Shown here piece after piece: positions 3,518 to 36,590 of a DNA stretch of 64,000 bases (position 1 is its first letter; every line of letters starts with the position of its first letter). The notes under the pieces were generated by a model. The model had not been told where the DNA came from, did not search any database, and saw only the letters and a program-made list of their open reading frames with translations. The position numbers and the translations under genes are program-made. The DNA comes from Candidatus Heimdallarchaeota archaeon (GTDB lineage Archaea; Asgardarchaeota; Heimdallarchaeia; Hodarchaeales; Hodarchaeaceae): assembly GCA_011364965.1 (NCBI GenBank), contig RDOB01000004.1, positions 32,001-96,000 of the forward strand, written 5' to 3'.

Positions 3518-4714
3518 ATGAATGTGGATTCAGTGAGTTCAGATGAAAATATAAATCAAATTGGATGCAAATTTGCATTGGTAGGACCTGAATTAAAATT
3601 ACAAAAAAATGTTATTCTAGAATTAAATGAAAATGGAACTATTTTAAAAATTACTCCTAATGCGAACATAAAAAGAAGATCTGCTAATGTCAGCTTTCCA
3701 CACCACTTAATTATACCTAAGCTAATAAATTCGCATATTCATCTGGGGGATAGTGCATTAAAAGACCAAGCATTTAATTTATCTTTAGATGAAGCGGTAG
3801 GGAAAACAGGACTTAAATATCAAGTAAATTCCTACTCAAAATCTGAAAGGATTGCTGCAATGAAAAATTCAATTAAAGAAATGATTTATTCAGGAACTTC
3901 AACCTGCTTAGATTTTCGAGAAGGAGGAATTGAGGGAATTAAAGAATTAATTGTAGCAAAGGAAAACTTACCTATTAATATTCAATGTTTTGGTAGATTT
4001 AACAATTCTAAAATCTTAATTGATGAAATTAGTTTATATAATGGTCTTGGCTTGTCAACTCCGATCGATTATACACTTAAGGAAATGGAGAAATTAAAAC
4101 TAATTTCTCAAGAGAACAATCTTGCTATAGCTACCCATATTGGAGAAAATGAAATGGTGATTAGCGAAGCTACGAATCAATTTGGGGATTCAGATCTTAA
4201 CATCGCTCTAAATTATTTAGATCCCAAAATTTTGGTTCATTTAATCGTTACTAGTGAAGCAGACAGAAAAAAAATCCCTAAATCTAAGTTCTTGGTATTC
4301 TGTCCAAGAGCAAATGCGTATTTTGGTCTAGGGTTTCCTCCAGTTGATTATTTCGTTCAAGCAGGATATAAAATTGGATTAGGAACCGATAACGTCATGA
4401 TTACATCTCCAAATATAATTGAAGAATTAAAATGGACATTATTGAGATTAAGGGAGAAAAAGTTATTTCTGGATCCTATTGAAGCATTAAAAATGATAAC
4501 AATTAATCCAGCTTTTAATTTAAATATCAATTCAGGTTGCTTGTATCCAAATTTCAGCGGAGATGCTTTGATAGTCAACTTAAAGACAGCAAGGACAAAT
4601 TTTAGTGAAGATCCTATTAAAAATCTTCTATTTAGAGCCCAATTCCCTTCAGATATCGATATGAATCTCTTTCATGGGAAACAAATTGGAAATGAAGAAA
4701 TTGCTTGTAAATAA
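3518..4714 (+). CDS. Metal-dependent amidohydrolase/deaminase (cytosine-deaminase/SsnA-like)
   Basis: NSHIHLGD (HxH), THIGE, LVHL, CPRAN, GLGTDN. Confidence 0.85.
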   Translation: MNVDSVSSDENINQIGCKFALVGPELKLQKNVILELNENGTILKITPNANIKRRSANVSFPHHLIIPKLINSHIHLGDSALKDQAFNLSLDEAVGKTGLKYQVNSYSKSERIAAMKNSIKEMIYSGTSTCLDFREGGIEGIKELIVAKENLPINIQCFGRFNNSKILIDEISLYNGLGLSTPIDYTLKEMEKLKLISQENNLAIATHIGENEMVISEATNQFGDSDLNIALNYLDPKILVHLIVTSEADRKKIPKSKFLVFCPRANAYFGLGFPPVDYFVQAGYKIGLGTDNVMITSPNIIEELKWTLLRLREKKLFLDPIEALKMITINPAFNLNINSGCLYPNFSGDALIVNLKTARTNFSEDPIKNLLFRAQFPSDIDMNLFHGKQIGNEEIACK

Positions 4715-5396
4715 ACCCTGGGTAATACTTTCTGCAGCCATTAGTCTAGATGGAAAAATTTCCACCTTGTATGAAAATTCAGAGCTTTCAAATCTTGAGG
4801 ATTGGAGTCGAGTCCATAAACTTAGAGCTAATTCAGACGCAATTATGGTGGGAAGTGGAACTATACGAACAGATAATTCCAAACTTACTGTGAAAGATGA
4901 ATTAATCGGAAGAAAACCTAAAAACCATCCTATCCGCATTGTTGTTAGTTCTAGGGGAGATCTTCCCTTTGATGCCCGTATATTTACAAATATTCCAGAA
5001 AATCCTTTAACGATATTAGCTACAACTAAACTTTGCCCTACTAATGTTAAAAAGAAGTTTGAGAATCTGGGTGTTGAGGTTCTCATTTGTGGAGATGGAC
5101 CTTTAACTGATTTGCCTCTGTTATTAGAAAAACTCTACATTGACTACAATATTAGAAATTTGATGGTAGAAGGGGGAAGTAAGTTGAATGGGAGTTTATT
5201 GGAGCAAAAATTAATAGATGAAGTTCAACTCGCAATAGCTCCAGTCATTTGTGGAGAAGGTATTCCTCTTTTTTCTTTAAAACAGCCTATCGAAAATTTC
5301 TCAGAATCCCCCACGTTCTCCTTTCAAAATTTAAAGTCTATTGGAGATATGATTTGGATCAGGATTCTCATAGATTATAAAAAAAGGGAAGTGTAA
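4692..5396 (+). CDS. arfC: 2,5-diamino-6-(ribosylamino)-4(3H)-pyrimidinone 5'-phosphate reductase (RibD C-terminal/Rib7-like)
   Basis: AISLDGKI, RVHKLRA, DAIMVGSGTIRTDN, LMVEGG; track start 4674, ATG 4692 preferred. Confidence 0.85.
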   Translation: MKKLLVNKPWVILSAAISLDGKISTLYENSELSNLEDWSRVHKLRANSDAIMVGSGTIRTDNSKLTVKDELIGRKPKNHPIRIVVSSRGDLPFDARIFTNIPENPLTILATTKLCPTNVKKKFENLGVEVLICGDGPLTDLPLLLEKLYIDYNIRNLMVEGGSKLNGSLLEQKLIDEVQLAIAPVICGEGIPLFSLKQPIENFSESPTFSFQNLKSIGDMIWIRILIDYKKREV

Positions 5397-5433
5397 TCCT
5401 TCCCATTGGTTTTCAAATGATAAAATTGATCCC

Positions 5434-6390
5434 CTATATAAATGAAGAAGCTGCAAAAAGAGAAATAAATGTCAAAATATATGGGATAATTGCATAAATT
5501 AGTGCAATGAATATAGCATGAGATCCTTGATTATCAATGGCTTTAGCAGCAAAATATATTAGAATAACACCTAACAGATGAAAGATTATTCCCAAAACGA
5601 AAAATATAATTCCTGTCTCCCCAGAAGTTCCAATTGTATCGATTGCAATTAAGTCAGCACTACTATTGACAGTTAGAGTCATTGGTTCAATAAAAAAAGC
5701 ATAATATGCTAGATTGAATATCTCTTCTATTATTGAAGGGAGATAGGTCCAACCTATGATTGTTGCCGCAGTTTTAAAATTTCTTTGATATGACGGGATT
5801 GAGGATGAAATAATTGCAAATAGTCCCCAAAGAATTAAGGAATTAATAATCCATTCAAATAAAAAATTCAATGGAGCCGTGAAAGCCCCTAGTAGTAAAG
5901 AAAATTGCATTATATCAGCAAGTGTACTAGGATCAAGAGGTCCAGATGGATCCATCCCCATACTTTCAAAGAAAGCGGATGAAAAAGTTATGTTCATTTT
6001 ACTAAAGAGAATATATGATGCAAAACCACCAATTAACCCTACTATAACAATCAAAATGATTGGTTGTCCTAGATTTGGCCTTTTTGCGATTTCTGCCATT
6101 TCTTTTTGAGGTGCTGTGATTACTCCACGGAAATGTTGGAGAAACGGAAGGGGTGGTTCTCTTCTATCCCCATATTGATAAGGAAAACTTCTTCCTGAAT
6201 CATATGGAATCGTTGAAATTCTGCTAGAATCAGAATATGAAGAGGACGGAGTTTTGATTACACCTTGTGAGTCGATTTGGGGAACTTTTTCCCCACAATA
6301 AGCGCAGAATGTAGCATTCTGGAGAATTTCCTTACCACAATTTCCACAATATCTTGGTGATTGAAAGTGAGAATTCAATATTCTAAACAT
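5434..6390 (-). CDS. Zinc-ribbon + Yip1-domain membrane protein
   Basis: CGNCG...FCAYCG N-terminus; 'VITAPQKEMAEIAKRP' followed by five hydrophobic segments with 'FKTAATIIGWTYLP', typical of Yip1 domains. Confidence 0.75.
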   Translation of the reverse strand: MFRILNSHFQSPRYCGNCGKEILQNATFCAYCGEKVPQIDSQGVIKTPSSSYSDSSRISTIPYDSGRSFPYQYGDRREPPLPFLQHFRGVITAPQKEMAEIAKRPNLGQPIILIVIVGLIGGFASYILFSKMNITFSSAFFESMGMDPSGPLDPSTLADIMQFSLLLGAFTAPLNFLFEWIINSLILWGLFAIISSSIPSYQRNFKTAATIIGWTYLPSIIEEIFNLAYYAFFIEPMTLTVNSSADLIAIDTIGTSGETGIIFFVLGIIFHLLGVILIYFAAKAIDNQGSHAIFIALIYAIIPYILTFISLFAASSFI

Positions 6391-6576
6391 CCTTTAAAAT
6401 TATGCTTTGAAGTATAGTTGAATATTTTCTTCTGTGAAATAAAAGTGTTGTTTTTACAGAAAGCATAATGTTAATTTCAAAAGAAAACAAAAAAATAATT
6501 CAATTAAGAGATTATTGTTTTTAAAAGAAAAGAAAGCATAATAGAAAGAGGTATAGGATATTTAATGGAAAAAAGC

Positions 6577-6891
6577 TTATGATCGATCCTTTAGCACAAC
6601 AATTGTAAAACTTGCTGCCTCATCAGGGGTAATTATCAATTCTGATTGGGGCATTTCTATATAAACGCTTTGAAGCTTCCCGTGATTTAAAGCATCAGAC
6701 ACACTTCTGACTTTTTTCACCAAAGATGCAACATGGGCTGATACTCGTTCAGCATCGGATTGTGGTAGGTTACTTTGTAGTGGCAATCCATCTTCATCAC
6801 ATACAAGGATTCCTTTCACTCCACGTCGGGCTGCAAGTCGTTTAATCGTATTTTGAAGAACTGAAGGTATTACATATTCATCATTGGACAT
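6577..6891 (-). CDS. Roadblock/LC7 protein (dynein light chain roadblock-like)
   Basis: IKRLAARRGVKGILVCDEDGLPLQSNL; ELIITPD; 104 aa. Confidence 0.9.
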   Translation of the reverse strand: MSNDEYVIPSVLQNTIKRLAARRGVKGILVCDEDGLPLQSNLPQSDAERVSAHVASLVKKVRSVSDALNHGKLQSVYIEMPQSELIITPDEAASFTIVVLKDRS

Positions 6892-6899
6892 TTTATCAC

Positions 6900-7241
6900 C
6901 TATTTTAATGTTGAGGGACCACCTTCCCTCTTGACAAGAGCAACAATTATTATTTCAGAGTCAAAATCAGGAATGATTTCGACATCACCAACTTCTAATT
7001 CTAATCTGATACTGCGAGCCACTTCCTTAGAAATCTCTTTAGATATATATTTCACCTTACCCACTAATGAGGCCACATTCGCTGCTACATTTTCTGTATC
7101 CTCTGATGGTAAACTTGATTGAAGTGGTAATCCATCTGTATCACATAGAACTGCTCCATATACTCCCTTGTGTTTTCCTACTGATTCTATTACTTTTTCC
7201 AGTGCTTGTTGGGATAAATATCCTGCTCCTTGTTGTGACAT
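6900..7241 (-). CDS. Roadblock/LC7 protein
   Basis: HKGVYGAVLCDTDGLPLQSSL; VASLVGKV; paralog of the adjacent gene. Confidence 0.9.
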   Translation of the reverse strand: MSQQGAGYLSQQALEKVIESVGKHKGVYGAVLCDTDGLPLQSSLPSEDTENVAANVASLVGKVKYISKEISKEVARSIRLELEVGDVEIIPDFDSEIIIVALVKREGGPSTLK

Positions 7242-7574: not shown

Positions 7575-8024
7575 ATGATAAAATACTTGTGTGTGACATT
7601 TATGTCTGATAACAAGAAAAAGGTAAATCAAGAGCCAGAGGATAAATTGAATCTGATTTTAGACGCAATGAACACTCTAGCTGAACGTATTTCTAGTTTA
7701 GATAATAGAATTTCGAAGATAGAAGAAAAAATTGCCTCTACAGAAATTATAAATGAGGTGAATTTTGAAGGAAACGATAACGACCAAAGACAAAGTAAAT
7801 TTAATTTTAATGAACTAGACAAACATTTACGGGATACTTATGACATTTTATCTAACTCTAACAAACCCATGACCGCTTCAGATGTCGCGGAGAGAAGAGG
7901 ATTGAGTCGAAGTACGATCAGTTATCACTTGAACCAATTAGTTACTTATGGATTAGCAAGTAAGGATCAAGGAAGAGCACCAGATTCTAAAAAAGTATTT
8001 TTCCAACCGAAAGATCCTGAATAA
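7575..8024 (+). CDS. Coiled-coil + winged-helix DNA-binding protein
   Basis: Heptad segment LAERISSLDNRISKIEEKI; PMTASDVAERRGLSRSTISYHLNQLVTYG HTH; real start possibly ATG 7602. Confidence 0.75.
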   Translation: MIKYLCVTFMSDNKKKVNQEPEDKLNLILDAMNTLAERISSLDNRISKIEEKIASTEIINEVNFEGNDNDQRQSKFNFNELDKHLRDTYDILSNSNKPMTASDVAERRGLSRSTISYHLNQLVTYGLASKDQGRAPDSKKVFFQPKDPE

Positions 8025-8071: not shown

Positions 8072-8617
8072 TTATTGAGAAGTGTATGATAGAATGTCTT
8101 CCCCAAGATAAGCAAAAGCCTTCTTTACTCCTTCTCCAGTTTTAGCTGATGTTTCTATGAATTTTATGCCGAGTTTTGCGGCCAATTTGCTACCTTCTTC
8201 CGTAGAAACCGTTTCAGCTCCTTCCTCACGAAGGTCTATTTTATTCGCTAGAAGAACTACTGGTACTTTTGTTTCACGGCCAGAATTTGCCCAGAGGTCA
8301 TTTAGCCATTTCTCTGCATTCTCAAAAGTTTGGCGACGAGTAACATCATATACAAGTACACCACCAAATATCTTTGTATAGTAGGCTTTTACGACTTCTT
8401 TAAAGACAGGTTGACCTGCTAAGTCCCAAATTTGCCACCGAATTTGAGTACTCCCAATCTCGGTATCATATAGGGCAAAATCAGCTCCCATTGTACTCAA
8501 ATAGTCAGTATCAAAACCTTCACCAAGATATCGTTTTCGTAAAGAAGTTTTCCCGACAGCTCCATCACCAGCTAATACTATTTTCCATAATCGTCGATCG
8601 TCTGAAATTTTTCTCAC
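8072..8617 (-). CDS. Rab-like small GTPase
   Basis: G1 GDGAVGKT, G2 YLSTMGADF, G3 IWDLAGQ, G4 NKID, G5 ETSAK; no C-terminal Cys prenylation motif. Confidence 0.95.
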   Translation of the reverse strand: MRKISDDRRLWKIVLAGDGAVGKTSLRKRYLGEGFDTDYLSTMGADFALYDTEIGSTQIRWQIWDLAGQPVFKEVVKAYYTKIFGGVLVYDVTRRQTFENAEKWLNDLWANSGRETKVPVVLLANKIDLREEGAETVSTEEGSKLAAKLGIKFIETSAKTGEGVKKAFAYLGEDILSYTSQ

Positions 8618-8622
8618 CTTTC

Positions 8623-9369
8623 CTAATTAGGTAATTTTAATGATATCAAGGTATCTCGTACCCATTGTGTGAATGTAATATCGTTACTTACAATCCGATC
8701 TACTTGAATTTTGTAATCAGAGGCTGCAATTTCGGTAGGAATGATTATAAATGAATCCTTATTTGCAACAGGTTGCAAACGAATCATAGGTTTCTCAACT
8801 TTGGATGCATCATCAGCAGCAGCTAATTCCAACTCAAGTAAAAATAGAAAATCCTTTGTTTTTATATCATCGAATCCATATTTAACCATATTGTCTTCAG
8901 GTTTTAAATCTAGTAACACCCGACTCCATTCGCTAATCCAATATTCATCTGTAAACCAGTGTTCTAGGTATTCCTTTCTTCGAGCTCGTAATTCGCTCAA
9001 AACAACCATATAACGGATCATCCCTTCCCGAACTCTTTTCATTAAGTTCAATCCTGGTTTATCATACAGTTCATTTAACTTAGCTCGCTCTTTACTTAGG
9101 AGGACCATAATTTTTACAATTTCCTCAAGTTCCCGATCACTAGCGATGGGAACGTACTTTGATACTTTTTCTAACCAAGAAATCGTATTTACAACTTCCT
9201 GTTCTGAAACTTCCTTACCACGAATTGCAGCAAGGGTCTTTTGAATCAGACCTTTATTTTTGATTATTTCAATATGCTCTTTCTTCTGAGCCATCTTACG
9301 ATTTTTTATCATTTCCTCAACTTTAATCGTAGCATACTGGTCGTGTTGTCGTTCCAATTTCGATTTCAC
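8623..9369 (-). CDS. Hypothetical protein, co-transcribed with the Rab-like GTPase
   Basis: 248-aa mostly helical ORF ending 5 bp before the GTPase start. Confidence 0.7.
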   Translation of the reverse strand: MKSKLERQHDQYATIKVEEMIKNRKMAQKKEHIEIIKNKGLIQKTLAAIRGKEVSEQEVVNTISWLEKVSKYVPIASDRELEEIVKIMVLLSKERAKLNELYDKPGLNLMKRVREGMIRYMVVLSELRARRKEYLEHWFTDEYWISEWSRVLLDLKPEDNMVKYGFDDIKTKDFLFLLELELAAADDASKVEKPMIRLQPVANKDSFIIIPTEIAASDYKIQVDRIVSNDITFTQWVRDTLISLKLPN

Positions 9370-9571: not shown

Positions 9572-11263
9572 TTACTCTGAATATGTATCAACTCGTTTTA
9601 CATATCCTAATTTGCGTAATTGCTCCAATGATTGTTGTTCAATTTCATGATCTCTCTTAGTTATTTTAGCAGCTGTTTCGGGAGATAGAATATTTGAGGT
9701 AAACAAAGCCCTAACAGTGGGTCTTAATTCCTCTGGAAGAGAAAGCATCCCTAATGTGTCAAACGCTTGGATTTGGATGTATTTAGGTGGTTCTGTACAA
9801 TCACAAATCTTCTTACCAATTTTCTCTTCTAGACTTCGACGTTTAGCACGTGGATTAATACCCACTTCCCGAAGAAAATCATGTCTTGCATTATGAGGTG
9901 TTGTAAATTCAAAAAAGAGAAGCTCTTGGACCTCAGGGTTTTGGTAATTTTTCCTCACAAAGTCTTTGAATAATTCTTCAGGATCTCCCCGTAATAAGTC
10001 TTTTTCTCCTCCATAAGAGAGAATCTTACTTCGTAAAGAATCAGAAACAGTAGTTATATCGAAAATAAAACTTTCAAAGATCTCCTCTACTAATTTATTA
10101 GCCCCTTTAAACCCTCCTAATCTTCCTGTATTTCCAAAATCATTTATTGCATCATTGTATTCAAGTTCAAATTTCTTGATAAAATTAAACAACATATCTG
10201 TCAATGACTCATTCATTGTAGGGCTATATAAAATTCCCACAACTTTTTTACCTTTTCTCTGAATAATTTTAATGTTGCCATTATCAATATAGCGCAAATC
10301 TCCTCTTCTGCCAGCAGTTTCGGAAACCATAAGAGCAATACTTGCCATTGCGGCTGTAATCAAAGCTGGATTTTTCATTTCGTCTTCAGATTTGCCAAAA
10401 AAATAATAGTACATTGTAGAACCTGAACTTATTCCAGTAATAAACAAAGCAATTGGTGGAGCTTCAGATTCATCAACTTGTTCAATAAAAGTTCCTTTCT
10501 CAGCACTCTGATAATACTTATTGCTCAAATCATCAAAAATGTCATTAAATCTGGATTCAGGATTTTCTATGACGAAAACACCTTTGTCTGGGAATTCATT
10601 TAATTCATTAGACCAAGGAATAGAATAGAATACAGGATGTCGTAACTTTGTCTCTAAACTTTCGATATATTGATCATATTGGTTAAAAACAATTGGAGGC
10701 CTAATCATATTAAGTATTAAAAGGCTGGGCTTTGTTAAGAAGGTGAAGAAGTTTTTAATTGTAGATTTTGTGAGATTAAGGGTAGGATATTTTTCTGTTG
10801 ATATAGTCCAAACTATATCACTATTTAAGATAGCACTCATTGAAATTGATTTATCCTCGAGGCTAGAAGGAAGAATAAAAACTAGGAGGTTGATCGTGTC
10901 TTTAAAAAATAGACTATTAGTCCTATACCTTATCTTCTCATGTAGATCAGTATCTGGGATAGCACAGCCTGAAGATGGCAAAACACGTAAAAAAGAGTCT
11001 TCATTTGCATCTTCAAAGATAACTAATGCCTCTTCTACAAGTATATCATCAGAGATCTCACGAATGAAATCAGAACTAGTAAAATGAGACTTTCCATAAG
11101 ATAATAAGCTATATCGTAGTTTTTCCGTAATGGAAAAATCTACTATCAAAATTCGTGACCCTGGATTCGAACGTGCATAAGATGTGAAAACATTCAGCGC
11201 AATAGTCTTTTTTCCACATCCTGAAGTTCTTGAATAGATACTAATAATTTTGGGGGGAACCAA
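9572..11263 (-). CDS. MinD/ParA-like P-loop domain + longin-like domain + C-terminal winged helix
   Basis: KIISIYSRTSGCGKKTIALN, ILIVDF, LRVLPS, LILNMI, IPWS (MinD/ParA layout); IALFITGISSGSTMYYYFF...LITAAMASIA...IDNGNIKII (longin-like); SPETAAKITKR...LEQLRKLGYV (wHTH). Confidence 0.7.
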   Translation of the reverse strand: MVPPKIISIYSRTSGCGKKTIALNVFTSYARSNPGSRILIVDFSITEKLRYSLLSYGKSHFTSSDFIREISDDILVEEALVIFEDANEDSFLRVLPSSGCAIPDTDLHEKIRYRTNSLFFKDTINLLVFILPSSLEDKSISMSAILNSDIVWTISTEKYPTLNLTKSTIKNFFTFLTKPSLLILNMIRPPIVFNQYDQYIESLETKLRHPVFYSIPWSNELNEFPDKGVFVIENPESRFNDIFDDLSNKYYQSAEKGTFIEQVDESEAPPIALFITGISSGSTMYYYFFGKSEDEMKNPALITAAMASIALMVSETAGRRGDLRYIDNGNIKIIQRKGKKVVGILYSPTMNESLTDMLFNFIKKFELEYNDAINDFGNTGRLGGFKGANKLVEEIFESFIFDITTVSDSLRSKILSYGGEKDLLRGDPEELFKDFVRKNYQNPEVQELLFFEFTTPHNARHDFLREVGINPRAKRRSLEEKIGKKICDCTEPPKYIQIQAFDTLGMLSLPEELRPTVRALFTSNILSPETAAKITKRDHEIEQQSLEQLRKLGYVKRVDTYSE

Positions 11264-11398: not shown

Positions 11399-12244
11399 TC
11401 AATATTTATAGAATCCTTCTCCTGATTTTCGACCCAATTTTCCTGCACGAACCATTTTTCTTAATAGAGGACAAGCTTGGAATTTAGGCCCAAATTCGTC
11501 TCTTAAGTAGTCCAAAATATGTAGAGCCGTATCTAAACCTATCAAATCTCCAAGAGTCAGTGGACCCATAGGATGTGCAAGTCCTAGCTTGATTGATTTA
11601 TCAATCTCCTCTACAGATCCTAATCCATCTTGCAACATAAACACCGCCTCATTAAGTATAATAACTGCAAGTCGTGTTGTAGCAAAACCGGGTAGATCAT
11701 TAATTACAACAGTTTCCTTCTGGATAATTTTGCAGTATTCAATTGAAGTGTTTAAAGTATCTTCAGAAGTGACTTCTCCCTTGATAACCTCAACCAGTTT
11801 CATCATTGGAACTGGATTAAAGAAATGTAATCCAATGAACTTTGTTTGACGTTCAGCTGAAACAGAGGATGCTAAATCGGTTATACTGATAGCAGATGTA
11901 TTAGATGCAATTATACAATCTTTCTTACAAATAATGTCTAATTTAGCGAAAGTTTCCTTCTTTAATGAAATTATTTCAGGAATGGCCTCTATTATTAGAT
12001 CACAATCCTTAAAATCCTTCAAATCCAAGGATGCTTTAATTTTACCCATGATCTTAGGAACATCAGTCTCAAGTAATTTTTCCTTTTTAACCATCCTACT
12101 GAGAGACTTTTCCATCTCGGTTAGTCCCCTGTCGATGAATTTTTGTTCTATATCATATAATAGAACATTATATCCAGCAATTGCACTAACCTGGGCAATT
12201 CCATTGCCCATAATCCCTGCACCAAGAATTCCTATAGTTTGCAT
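11399..12244 (-). CDS. hbd: 3-hydroxybutyryl-CoA/3-hydroxyacyl-CoA dehydrogenase
   Basis: GILGAGIMGNGIA, IIEAIPE, ASNTS, GLHFFNP, HPMGPL, GRKSGEGFY; ATG 12244 preferred over track start 12328. Confidence 0.92.
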   Translation of the reverse strand: MQTIGILGAGIMGNGIAQVSAIAGYNVLLYDIEQKFIDRGLTEMEKSLSRMVKKEKLLETDVPKIMGKIKASLDLKDFKDCDLIIEAIPEIISLKKETFAKLDIICKKDCIIASNTSAISITDLASSVSAERQTKFIGLHFFNPVPMMKLVEVIKGEVTSEDTLNTSIEYCKIIQKETVVINDLPGFATTRLAVIILNEAVFMLQDGLGSVEEIDKSIKLGLAHPMGPLTLGDLIGLDTALHILDYLRDEFGPKFQACPLLRKMVRAGKLGRKSGEGFYKY

Positions 12245-12432
12245 TTTTATTCCCTTTTTTTCTTTAATAATACAGTCATGAAAATTAATTTCCAGTGGAA
12301 GTATAAGAATTTTGACCAATTTTGGCAATCATTATTAACTGCGGAAAATAACCAACTCTAATTTCGGTAGCTAGCAGAAATTAAGTAAATCATGATGGTT
12401 TATTATATATCTATTAATTGGATTTTTACTGG

Positions 12433-35177: not shown

Positions 35178-36590
35178 TTAGCTTGCATGAAAGTCGGTAG
35201 TATTTAATATAGAGTCTATTGTACCATTTTGTTGAGCTTGAACGAGTAAAGCTTGAATTTTATCATTGATTGAATATTCTGGTTCTCCCTTTTCTAATAA
35301 TCCCTTGACAAGCTTCATTGAAAGGGCTAAATCTGTTTTTGCAAGATTTTCATTTCCAGCTTTACATATTGCTACTCCTCTTACAGAGGTATTTGCAGGA
35401 CCCATGACGGATGTGAAAACACATCTTTTGTCGCCAGCTGTTAGATGGTCAGGAGTGTGTCCGATCAAATCAGAACTCATTGACTGAATTGCGGAAAATA
35501 GTCCAGTATATAGACAAACTTCTTGTCCCGCAGGTCTATGACTTGCAAATAGAGGTAAACCTCCATCATCAAAGATATAAACCTCTGATTCCGAAAAAAT
35601 TTTACCAAGAATACGAAAACGTTCATCTTCTTCAGTAGCATCGAAAAGATCTCTTTTTCTCTCATTTATTGGGGAAATATAGTCGTCTCCATAGTTTGCT
35701 GACTGATTTAAGAAATTTAATGATGCAGATTTTGGGAAAACGTCATCTATAGAGTTAAGGTCTGTTATTATCAACAAAGAGGTGAAACTAGAAATTTGGG
35801 GGTTAACAATATTATTTAGGTATATTTCAAACTCATCTCCAAACGACTTGGCAACTTTTTTGGATATCAAATTTAAATCATGTAGATTAAGAGGAGAAGA
35901 AGAGCTGATAGAAATAAAAATTGCTTCAAGAGATTCAAGTTCCTCTGGCATAGAAGTAACCAATTTTTCTCCAATTTGATTAATTGAAGCCTCTAATGCA
36001 CTCTCAGCGTCTTTAGCGGCAGAAATTCCATAATATAAGCTTTTGGATGCTCCAAACAAACACATCAAATCAGGAAATGAAACACCGGGATTTAAAGAAG
36101 GAGTCAAGCTGGATAACACACAATCTATGAATATTAGATAATTCCATTTACCATTTTCATCAGAAAAGTCAAAATTAAAGTAATTGGGACCAAAAAGCTT
36201 TCGTTTCTGAGGGTTTGGATTTTTGGATACATCAATAAACAGAGGAATCGAACCAGAAAACTTTATAGAGCCAGAAATTCCCCCAAGAGCTCTTAATGTT
36301 CCTTCGTCGGAAGAATTAAAAATAAAGATTAGAAAATAGGAATTTAAAAGACTTTGGATCTGAGATAATGTTGTAACTGAATCAAAAGTCACGACTTGAT
36401 CACATATTGTATCTCCAATTGCTGTTGGAGTTAATAACAAGAGAGGAAGCCGAGATTCATCTCGGGCCGATAGATAATCATGTACGATTTTCATCTCGTT
36501 TGATAGATTATCACCAATAAATACAATTTTACCACGTGGCCTGATGTATTCAAGAAAAGGATTATTTTCAGCGATTAAACTTGTATTCAT
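35178..36590 (-). CDS. Degenerate FtsZ/tubulin-like domain + C-terminal longin-like domain
   Basis: VSFPDLMCLF...YYGISA...AIFISISSSSPLNLHDLNLISKKV...IVNP...LLIITDL follows the FtsZ C-terminal domain; EVYIFDDGGLPLF...LYTGLFSAIQSMSSDL longin-like. Confidence 0.65.
   Translation of the reverse strand: MNTSLIAENNPFLEYIRPRGKIVFIGDNLSNEMKIVHDYLSARDESRLPLLLLTPTAIGDTICDQVVTFDSVTTLSQIQSLLNSYFLIFIFNSSDEGTLRALGGISGSIKFSGSIPLFIDVSKNPNPQKRKLFGPNYFNFDFSDENGKWNYLIFIDCVLSSLTPSLNPGVSFPDLMCLFGASKSLYYGISAAKDAESALEASINQIGEKLVTSMPEELESLEAIFISISSSSPLNLHDLNLISKKVAKSFGDEFEIYLNNIVNPQISSFTSLLIITDLNSIDDVFPKSASLNFLNQSANYGDDYISPINERKRDLFDATEEDERFRILGKIFSESEVYIFDDGGLPLFASHRPAGQEVCLYTGLFSAIQSMSSDLIGHTPDHLTAGDKRCVFTSVMGPANTSVRGVAICKAGNENLAKTDLALSMKLVKGLLEKGEPEYSINDKIQALLVQAQQNGTIDSILNTTDFHAS

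Follow-up and report, generated by a model that had tools for sequence, protein, structure and literature searches.

A 64,000-nucleotide stretch of Candidatus Heimdallarchaeota archaeon (GenBank assembly GCA_011364965.1, contig RDOB01000004.1, positions 32,001 to 96,000; hereafter the window, with a G+C content of about 34%) carries a gene for a 563 amino acid protein in which a ParA/MinD-like domain with degenerate catalytic motifs is joined to a longin domain, a helical region and a winged helix (wH). It is a conserved, unannotated gene of the Hodarchaeales with a four-part architecture. The feature is real, and the anatomy given to it by an initial annotation of the sequence is correct; comparison of each domain by profile and structure (hhalign, Foldseek and VIA-align) upheld all three of its domain calls. 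As to function, we propose, with about even confidence, that the protein is a non-hydrolysing scaffold derived from an archaeal module of ParA and winged helix-turn-helix (wHTH) proteins, and that its longin domain couples it to the Rab-like GTPase encoded next to it. The gene and its parts are as follows.

9572..11263, minus strand: the pseudo-ParA/MinD, longin, helical/zinc and winged-helix gene, 563 residues, an open reading frame with a TTG start (stop codon included)
10478..11263, minus strand: ParA/MinD-like (SIMIBI) P-loop domain with degenerate catalytic motifs, residues 1-262 (Pfam CbiA, PDB profile matches, hhalign)
11204..11233, minus strand: degenerate Walker A motif S-R-T-S-G-C-G-K-K-T, residues 11-20 (alignments and residue counts)
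10064..10462, minus strand: longin domain, residues 268-400 (Foldseek, VIA-align and weak profile matches)
9791..10063, minus strand: helical region, residues 401-491 (AlphaFold2 (AF2) model)
9797..9895, minus strand: putative zinc site H457-x3-H461 ... C487-x-C489, residues 457-489 (invariance)
9575..9790, minus strand: winged helix, residues 492-563 (VIA-align, Foldseek, hhalign)

Judged by its sequence profile, the N-terminal domain is a true ParA/MinD homologue, and the P-loop fold of the SIMIBI class that had been assigned to residues 1-250 or so is thereby upheld. Pfam CbiA (PF01656; CobQ/CobB/MinD/ParA) covers residues 7-228 with 26.8 bits, the cut-off being 25.4. A profile built from 28 sequences of the family aligned Pyrococcus furiosus MinD (1g3q) with residues 5-253 when run against the PDB (E 6e-5), further matches being PF-32 ParA, two other MinDs and CapB tyrosine kinases, and hhalign against five canonical archaeal ParA/MinD proteins gave a probability of 99.1% (E 6e-19) over 229 columns. 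With phmmer the whole 563-residue protein reached MinD in the PDB at E ~0.9 at best.

The catalytic motifs of this domain were examined in 57 Hodarchaeales sequences, to which the residue counts given here refer. Residues 12-20 read R-T-S-G-C-G-K-K-T, in which G17, K18 and T20 of the P-loop are kept. The column of the signature Lys (K-G-G-x-G-K-T/S) is occupied by T13 (Thr in 53 of 57, and Lys in none of four distant relatives), and that of the Walker B/switch II Asp by I130 of an I-L-P sequence at 130-132 (Ile in 54 of 57). Both replacements had been read by the initial annotation, which took the domain for an altered or inactive ATPase. Two more are missing from it: K19 stands in the column of the Mg-binding Ser/Thr (Lys in 49 sequences, Gln in seven and Arg in one), and in switch I the first Asp (D42) is kept while the column of the second holds S44 (Ser in 55 of 57). 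With these additional losses, and with the replacements fixed across the 57 sequences, the altered-ATPase reading gains in strength: the domain is predicted to be non-hydrolysing, and ATP-driven dimerisation and cycling are not expected of it. G17, K18, N24, P132 and N185 occur in all 57 sequences; in hhalign N185 falls on the Asn that canonical ParA conserves, and P216 aligns with a conserved Pro of P. furiosus MinD. When set beside the MinD/ParA deviant-Walker-A ATPases, the domain is thus homologous over its whole length and shares the P-loop Gly-Lys, D42, N185 and P216 columns with them, but those enzymes possess the signature Lys, the Mg-binding Ser/Thr, the second switch I Asp and the Walker B Asp that are lacking here, and they are without the approximately 300 C-terminal residues of the 563-residue protein.

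The mean pairwise identity of the four parts among the same sequences is 0.61 for the ParA/MinD-like domain, 0.68 for the longin domain, 0.58 for the helical region and 0.71 for the wH, which is the best conserved part. Since all four parts are 58-71% identical across 57 sequences, a pseudogene or decay explanation could be rejected. Identity of 61% in spite of four replaced positions shows the N-terminal domain to be constrained rather than decaying, and fits the proposal, already made in the initial annotation, that an ATPase fold was converted into a scaffold.

It might be argued instead that the N-terminal domain is not dead, and that it works as a Mg-independent sensor of nucleotides or as a slow switch, with Lys19 standing in for the metal and the nucleotide state gating the longin and wH surfaces. 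The invariant or nearly invariant G17, K18, T20 and N185 are in keeping with this, as are the alignments of N185 and P216 with canonical residues and the restriction of position 19 to Lys, Gln or Arg, which is not random. Nevertheless, four independent catalytic or Mg-binding positions hold residues unfit for the chemistry, and two more distant fusions, P0075 and P0088, have lost the P-loop wholly while keeping the fusion to the longin domain, which argues that the architecture can do without nucleotide handling. We regard such a sensor as very improbable.

Searching 5.8 billion proteins revealed 65 relatives of approximately 560 residues and 48-83% identity; in homologues a Met is aligned with the position of the TTG start. 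The named matches among the 65 are all from Hodarchaeales or Heimdallarchaeota-type metagenome-assembled genomes, and the annotations read "hypothetical", "MinD-like ATPase" or "BcsQ". In a set of 400 Asgard genomes, the protein is matched at full length in 19 of the 21 genomes of the archaeon's own GTDB family and genus, and only there. A second family of the same order gave one partial match (profile positions 93-562), and in the remaining Asgard genomes the longin part alone was matched, mostly in proteins of about 750 residues. An exhaustive search among 1.84 billion representatives yielded only eight clusters below E 1e-30. No further relatives came from a second protein search with a diverse alignment, and longer fused forms (with a GTPase, for example) were sought and not found, which is weak evidence. 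Pfam and NCBIfam returned nothing when the middle and C-terminal parts were searched as single sequences. Full-text literature searches brought up no description of a MinD/ParA-longin fusion in Asgard archaea; the asCOG paper and a 2026 structural-clustering preprint contain no mention of MinD and no such fusion.

The middle domain, called longin-like at about residues 268-400 by the initial annotation, is a longin domain on the strength of its AF2 model. The order of elements is beta-beta-alpha-beta-beta-beta-alpha-alpha, without the N-terminal helix of Roadblock proteins. DSSP placed strands at 272-277, 283-288, 332-337 and 341-347 and helices at 299-316, 352-368 and 370-379; the third strand is poorly modelled, and the predicted local distance difference test (pLDDT) score of residues 291-330 is only 47-53. 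In Foldseek against the PDB the best match was AP2 sigma (E 1.4e-4, probability 1.0), followed by zeta-COP, Sec22b, TRAPP, Mon1-Ccz1 and Fuzzy. VIA-align gave Z 14.1 to Sec22b (126 of 128 residues, root mean square deviation 2.9), 13.4 to Fuzzy, 12-13 to AP sigma subunits, 11-12 to TRAPP subunits and Ykt6, and 10.4-10.7 to the SRX domain of the signal recognition particle (SRP) receptor alpha subunit; each of the 50 top rows was a longin domain. With the two structure comparisons in agreement, the possibility that the middle domain has some fold other than longin or profilin-like can be set aside. At the sequence level the signal is faint. Pfam found no longin family in the 563-residue protein, and a longin profile run against the PDB gave sub-threshold matches alone, seven of 12 being longin or Roadblock proteins at E 0.01-0.9 (among them a Roadblock domain, Trs23, TRAPPC1, zeta-COP, Bet5 and another TRAPP subunit) and the other five unrelated (E 0.3-1.1).

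A search of representatives found this longin family alone in proteins of about 120 residues, after CBS domains, and after ParA-like domains without a P-loop. The archaeon's own genome holds at least 19 copies in varied architectures, including fusions to major facilitator superfamily (MFS) transporters and tetratricopeptide repeat (TPR) proteins, and the family is thus a general or mobile add-on module there. One of these paralogues weakly matches Pfam Fuz_longin_1 (E 5e-4, below the cut-off). Two adjoining MFS_1 transporter genes with a C-terminal longin of the same family lie at about 146.4-148.7 kb of contig 11 (L035 1474-3132 and L038 1471-3105, both minus strand), and a TPR-repeat protein with such a C-terminal longin is encoded at about 543.3 kb of contig 9 (L047 1480-3342, minus strand). 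The protein encoded at 35178..36590 of the window showed no BLASTP similarity to the longin of residues 268-400, and is not among the 19 genome matches of the longin profile.

In the C-terminal part, residues 385-563 were folded separately by AF2 from 63 sequences, with an overall pLDDT of 85. H457, H461, C487 and C489, a set missing from the initial annotation, are invariant in all 63, which include relatives at 22-31% identity, and probably form a structural zinc site in the helical region. No structural partner of residues 385-490 was found in the PDB or the Atlas; as this was barely tested, it is no evidence of a new fold. A profile of the 179 C-terminal residues reached PDB sequences at E 0.7-1.3 only (a transcriptional regulator and eS25), and Foldseek with the C-terminal model gave no match at E <= 0.001.

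The last domain, for which a wHTH had been proposed at about residues 505-560, is a wH spanning residues 492-563. VIA-align matched it over 55-68 residues (Z 8.2-6.1) to the GATOR1 chain 8fw5_B (8.2), the SEA complex chain 8adl_S (7.9), TFE-alpha (7.7) and TrmBL2 (7.0), then to Fur and MarR; the top Foldseek match was the RPC39 wH (2yu3). The Atlas matches were MarR-type wHTH clusters (TM 0.63-0.74, normalised by the model of the matched cluster), together with DUF742 and the NPR2 family. Z values of 7-8 are common for small wH domains, so these values establish the fold and nothing more. For the putative recognition helix the median net charge is -1, within a domain that is as a whole mildly basic (median pI, the isoelectric point, 8.7), and in the model the chain ends after a single strand beyond helix 3, with no full wing. 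An acidic recognition helix and a chain that stops after one strand make DNA binding doubtful. The suggestion that the protein is tethered to DNA therefore fares badly, all the more as the two best matches are chains of protein complexes and not DNA-binding regulators.

These same matches recall NPRL2 of GATOR1, in which a longin is likewise followed by a wH. Perhaps the longin is catalytic on the Rab-like GTPase, either as a GTPase-activating protein (GAP) with Arg319 or Arg320 as its finger, comparable to FLCN, NPRL2 and SMCR8, or in the form of a guanine nucleotide exchange factor (GEF) platform like TRAPP or Mon1-Ccz1, the order of longin, linker and wH echoing NPRL2. After helix alpha1 there is an R-R-G sequence at 319-321 that is conserved in Hodarchaeales (R/K in 57/57, R in 47/57 and G in 57/57). 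The GATOR1 and SEA chains are the best wH matches, with an NPR2 family row in the Atlas, and 8adl_S also aligned with the full-length model over 335 columns; the Rab-GEF subunits Fuzzy, Trs23/Bet5 and Mon1-Ccz1 are among the strong longin matches, and the paralogue resembling Fuz_longin_1 points the same way. Against this, a GP motif just before strand beta2 is said to mark the GAP longins FLCN, NPRL2 and SMCR8 (PMC12290439), and it is absent here: the loop reads S280-G281-x-T, with G281 invariant and no Pro after it (G-x-P occurs in some distant members of the longin family). R319 is kept in the distant relative P0067 but is lost in three of four, P0068, P0070 and P0105, two of which have Thr and one Ala in its place, even though the relative in locus L004 still adjoins a GTPase gene. 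No sequence-level match to the NPR2, FLCN or DENN families was obtained, the Rab/Rag longin regulators having no detectable sequence relationship to the 563-residue protein and no dead ParA domain at their N-termini. In addition, the GATOR1 and SEA chains are known at the level of the complex only, and a Z of 7-8 is ordinary for a small wH. A catalytic longin is therefore, in our opinion, distinctly unlikely.

The scaffold that we prefer relies on the surroundings of the gene, where the following features are found.

8623..9369, minus strand: 248-residue protein of no detectable family (synteny; homologue in L004)
8072..8617, minus strand: Rab-like small GTPase, 181 residues, G1-G5 intact and with the catalytic Gln (Pfam Ras, E 4e-45)
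7575..8024, plus strand: 149-residue wHTH protein, divergent (Pfam TrmB, HTH_20 and HTH_5)
6900..7241 and 6577..6891, minus strand: two Roadblock/LC7 genes (Pfam Robl_LC7, E 1.5e-13 and 7.7e-17)
5434..6390, minus strand: membrane protein with a zinc ribbon and a Yip1 domain (Pfam Yip1, E 3e-8; Zn_Ribbon_1, E 4e-7)

The GTPase has a Thorarchaeota Rab (7ezb, E 3e-39) as its best PDB match, followed by Rab10, Rab8 and Rab11, and its gene starts 5 bp past the end of that for the 248-residue protein. Synteny was followed by tblastn in 19 species-level Hodarchaeales loci and one separately fetched locus. The Rab-like GTPase lies no more than about 1.1 kb downstream in all 17 distinct loci that extend far enough, and the order after it (the wHTH gene, two Roadblock genes and the zinc ribbon-Yip1 gene) is kept across loci. 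The Roadblock genes are 80-94% identical across the Hodarchaeales, and the 248-residue protein, for which neither Pfam, the PDB nor the Atlas gave a match, is encoded in about half of the loci. In L004 a relative at 28% identity has otherwise different flanks, and is followed by a 196-residue homologue of the 248-residue protein (E 7e-27) and by a GTPase that shares 55% identity with the one in the window. The small-GTPase link drawn by the initial annotation is in this way supported by gene order, in the 17 loci and in L004; that the two proteins interact is what gene order alone would suggest.

In the proposed scaffold, the pseudo-ParA domain lacks the residues for an ATP-sandwich dimer and for hydrolysis, and would not cycle. 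With its P-loop Gly-Lys and Asn kept, it may still bind nucleotide or a ParA-type partner. The longin would bind the adjacent Rab-like GTPase, by analogy with SRX-SRbeta, TRAPP, Mon1-Ccz1 and Fuzzy-Inturned, and the dead ParA domain and the wH could provide surfaces for assembly or anchoring, as could the helical region with its putative zinc clamp. Further parts of the same module may be the 248-residue protein, both Roadblock proteins and the membrane protein with the Yip1 domain. Of the proteins named, the SRP receptor alpha subunit likewise combines a SIMIBI NTPase fold and a longin in one chain and works with a small Ras-superfamily GTPase, the Arf-like SRbeta. It differs in that SRX is N-terminal, so that the order is reversed, and in having an active GTPase of the SRP branch; the analogy is one of design and no homology of the whole proteins is claimed. 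TRAPP Bet5/Trs23, Mon1-Ccz1 and Fuzzy-Inturned share the longin fold (Z 10.6-13.4), and the 563-residue gene likewise stands beside that of a Rab-like GTPase. The comparison could be carried further. The 563-residue protein might be a dedicated partner of the Rab-like GTPase, whether as an effector or as a GEF or GAP platform, and form with the 248-residue protein, the Roadblocks and the Yip1 protein a self-contained Rab module, in which a SIMIBI fold, tethered to the small GTPase through a longin, would prefigure in prokaryotes the SRalpha-SRbeta or longin-GEF design known from membrane traffic in eukaryotes. We offer this as a tentative possibility.

Several observations weigh against the scaffold and its coupling to the GTPase. 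In the full-length AF2 model (30 close homologues, mean pLDDT 62) the N-terminal domain scored 30-70, mostly below 50, and its fold is consequently derived from sequence profiles. As the P-loop Lys is kept, residual nucleotide binding or even slow hydrolysis by this domain could persist. Upstream of the gene, folE2 and a 450-residue unknown are equally syntenic within the Hodarchaeales, so that shared ancestry may account for most of the gene-order signal, with L004 as the one independent piece of support. The relatives in L002 and L052 adjoin a ParA gene, not a GTPase. Finally, 202 bp separate the 563-residue gene from the pair for the 248-residue protein and the GTPase, including an A/T-rich stretch that might be a promoter, so co-transcription is only a possibility.

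The distant relatives bear on ancestry. P0067 and P0105, labelled by source as Thorarchaeota and Hodarchaeales, respectively, lie directly behind canonical ParA genes (K-G-G-T-G-K-T/S, D-x-D, D-T-S-P-G); in L052 the two genes share one base (5902), the last of the ParA gene and the first of the relative's. This position connects the family with the archaeal ParA-wHTH systems, among which, as described in the section "The ParA-wHTH system" of the bioRxiv preprint 10.64898/2026.10.19.760177, are some with a wHTH partner fused to profilin-longin-like domains, and for which an anti-invader role is proposed. A canonical ParA of the same subtype as that next to the distant relatives is encoded in the archaeon's own genome at about 370.0-372.0 kb of contig 11 (K-G-G-T-G-K-T, D-x-D, D-T-S-P-G, and C-x-C near the C-terminus), unlinked to the 563-residue gene and with two small wHTH-like genes upstream (L048 289-642, 817-1431 and 1492-2286, all plus strand); the set looks like such a ParA-wHTH system. 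The 204-residue wHTH (about 370.5 kb), encoded just upstream of this ParA (about 371.2 kb), is 46% identical to the wHTH protein encoded at 7575 over 48 residues (E 6e-8), and it matches the C-terminal profile of the 563-residue family in hhalign (78%, E 1.8e-5), as does a 96-residue wHTH-like protein upstream of the ParA in L002 (64%). The wH of the 563-residue protein had been described as of the same subtype as the 7575 protein. Compared directly the two show no such relationship (no BLASTP match, hhalign 2%), but an indirect one stands, as both resemble the 204-residue protein. The family most likely descends from an archaeal pair of ParA and wHTH genes, of which a second ParA copy would have degenerated and become fused to a longin and a wH; in the Hodarchaeales the ancestral fused gene would then have become a core gene beside the Rab-like GTPase.

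Such an origin raises the question whether the protein has left the ParA-wHTH world at all. It could be an adaptor in a DNA-directed system for positioning or defence against invaders, its dead ParA domain pairing in trans with an unlinked ParA and its wH binding DNA, with the proximity of the GTPase gene being incidental. The position of the distant relatives immediately behind canonical ParA, the ParA subtype with two upstream wHTH genes in the same genome, the resemblance of the wH to the ParA-adjacent wHTH and the profilin-longin-like fusions in the preprint's section are all consistent with this, as is the mildly basic character of the wH as a whole. No ParA gene was found beside the 563-residue gene, either in the cluster of the window or in any Hodarchaeales locus, and L004 retains the GTPase, not ParA. 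The gene occupies one fixed chromosomal site and is present in 19 of the clade's 21 genomes, a pattern that does not resemble that of patchy, mobile defence genes; no part of the protein is better conserved than the wH, whereas the same section describes the wHTH of those systems as fast-evolving; and the recognition helix is net acidic. On balance we consider an adaptor of this kind rather unlikely, and retain the scaffold coupled to the GTPase.

As represented in that section, the archaeal ParA-wHTH systems likewise combine a ParA-family domain with a wH, some including a profilin/longin-superfamily domain, and are mainly archaeal. The 563-residue protein departs from them in having the ParA domain in the same chain, catalytically degenerate and with no active ParA adjacent. 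Its gene is not a patchy two-gene cassette but a core gene that one clade has inherited vertically and keeps in a fixed place, beside a Rab-like GTPase, Roadblocks and Yip1. Neither a fusion of pseudo-ParA, longin and wH nor the His2Cys2 motif is mentioned in the section.

Asgard genomes contain dozens of small GTPases together with longin and Roadblock proteins, and which regulator is paired with which GTPase is largely unknown. In a cultured Lokiarchaeon the genes for these three groups are generally not in operons, making the pairing hard to predict (Tran et al. 2024, PMC10933270). The present locus is an exception, its clade-wide fixed order linking one Rab-like GTPase with a single longin protein, a pair of Roadblocks and a membrane protein of the Yip1 family. 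It also connects a "eukaryote-like" locus of Asgard archaea with the ParA-wHTH systems recently described in archaea, as these appear in the section cited above.

Among the relatives, P0073 was considered as a natural form with longin and wH only. This was rejected, as the adjoining upstream open reading frame is the N-terminal half of the ParA-like domain and P0105, its mate in a 90% cluster, is full length (576 residues, intact). P0073 is split in L005 into ParA-like and longin-wH pieces of 163 and 356 residues (5423-5914 and 6001-7071, plus strand), probably by a frameshift or an assembly error. Just upstream of the ParA/pseudo-ParA pair in L052, a 272-residue protein (4090-4908, plus strand) has a sub-threshold match to bactofilin (E 3e-5; 24.5 bits, the cut-off being 27.9).

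Within the cluster of the window, the 248-residue protein is a candidate partner of the GTPase. The 149-residue wHTH protein has an N-terminal half that looks helical when the sequence is inspected by eye. The zinc ribbon-Yip1 gene is conserved at the end of the cluster yet diverges rapidly, at 31-47% identity. A gene for 3-hydroxyacyl-CoA dehydrogenase (11399-12328, minus strand) is located between folE2 and the 563-residue gene here and in L020-L022, and is absent or fragmentary in most other Hodarchaeales loci; its patchy occurrence in an otherwise fixed order points to local insertion or loss.

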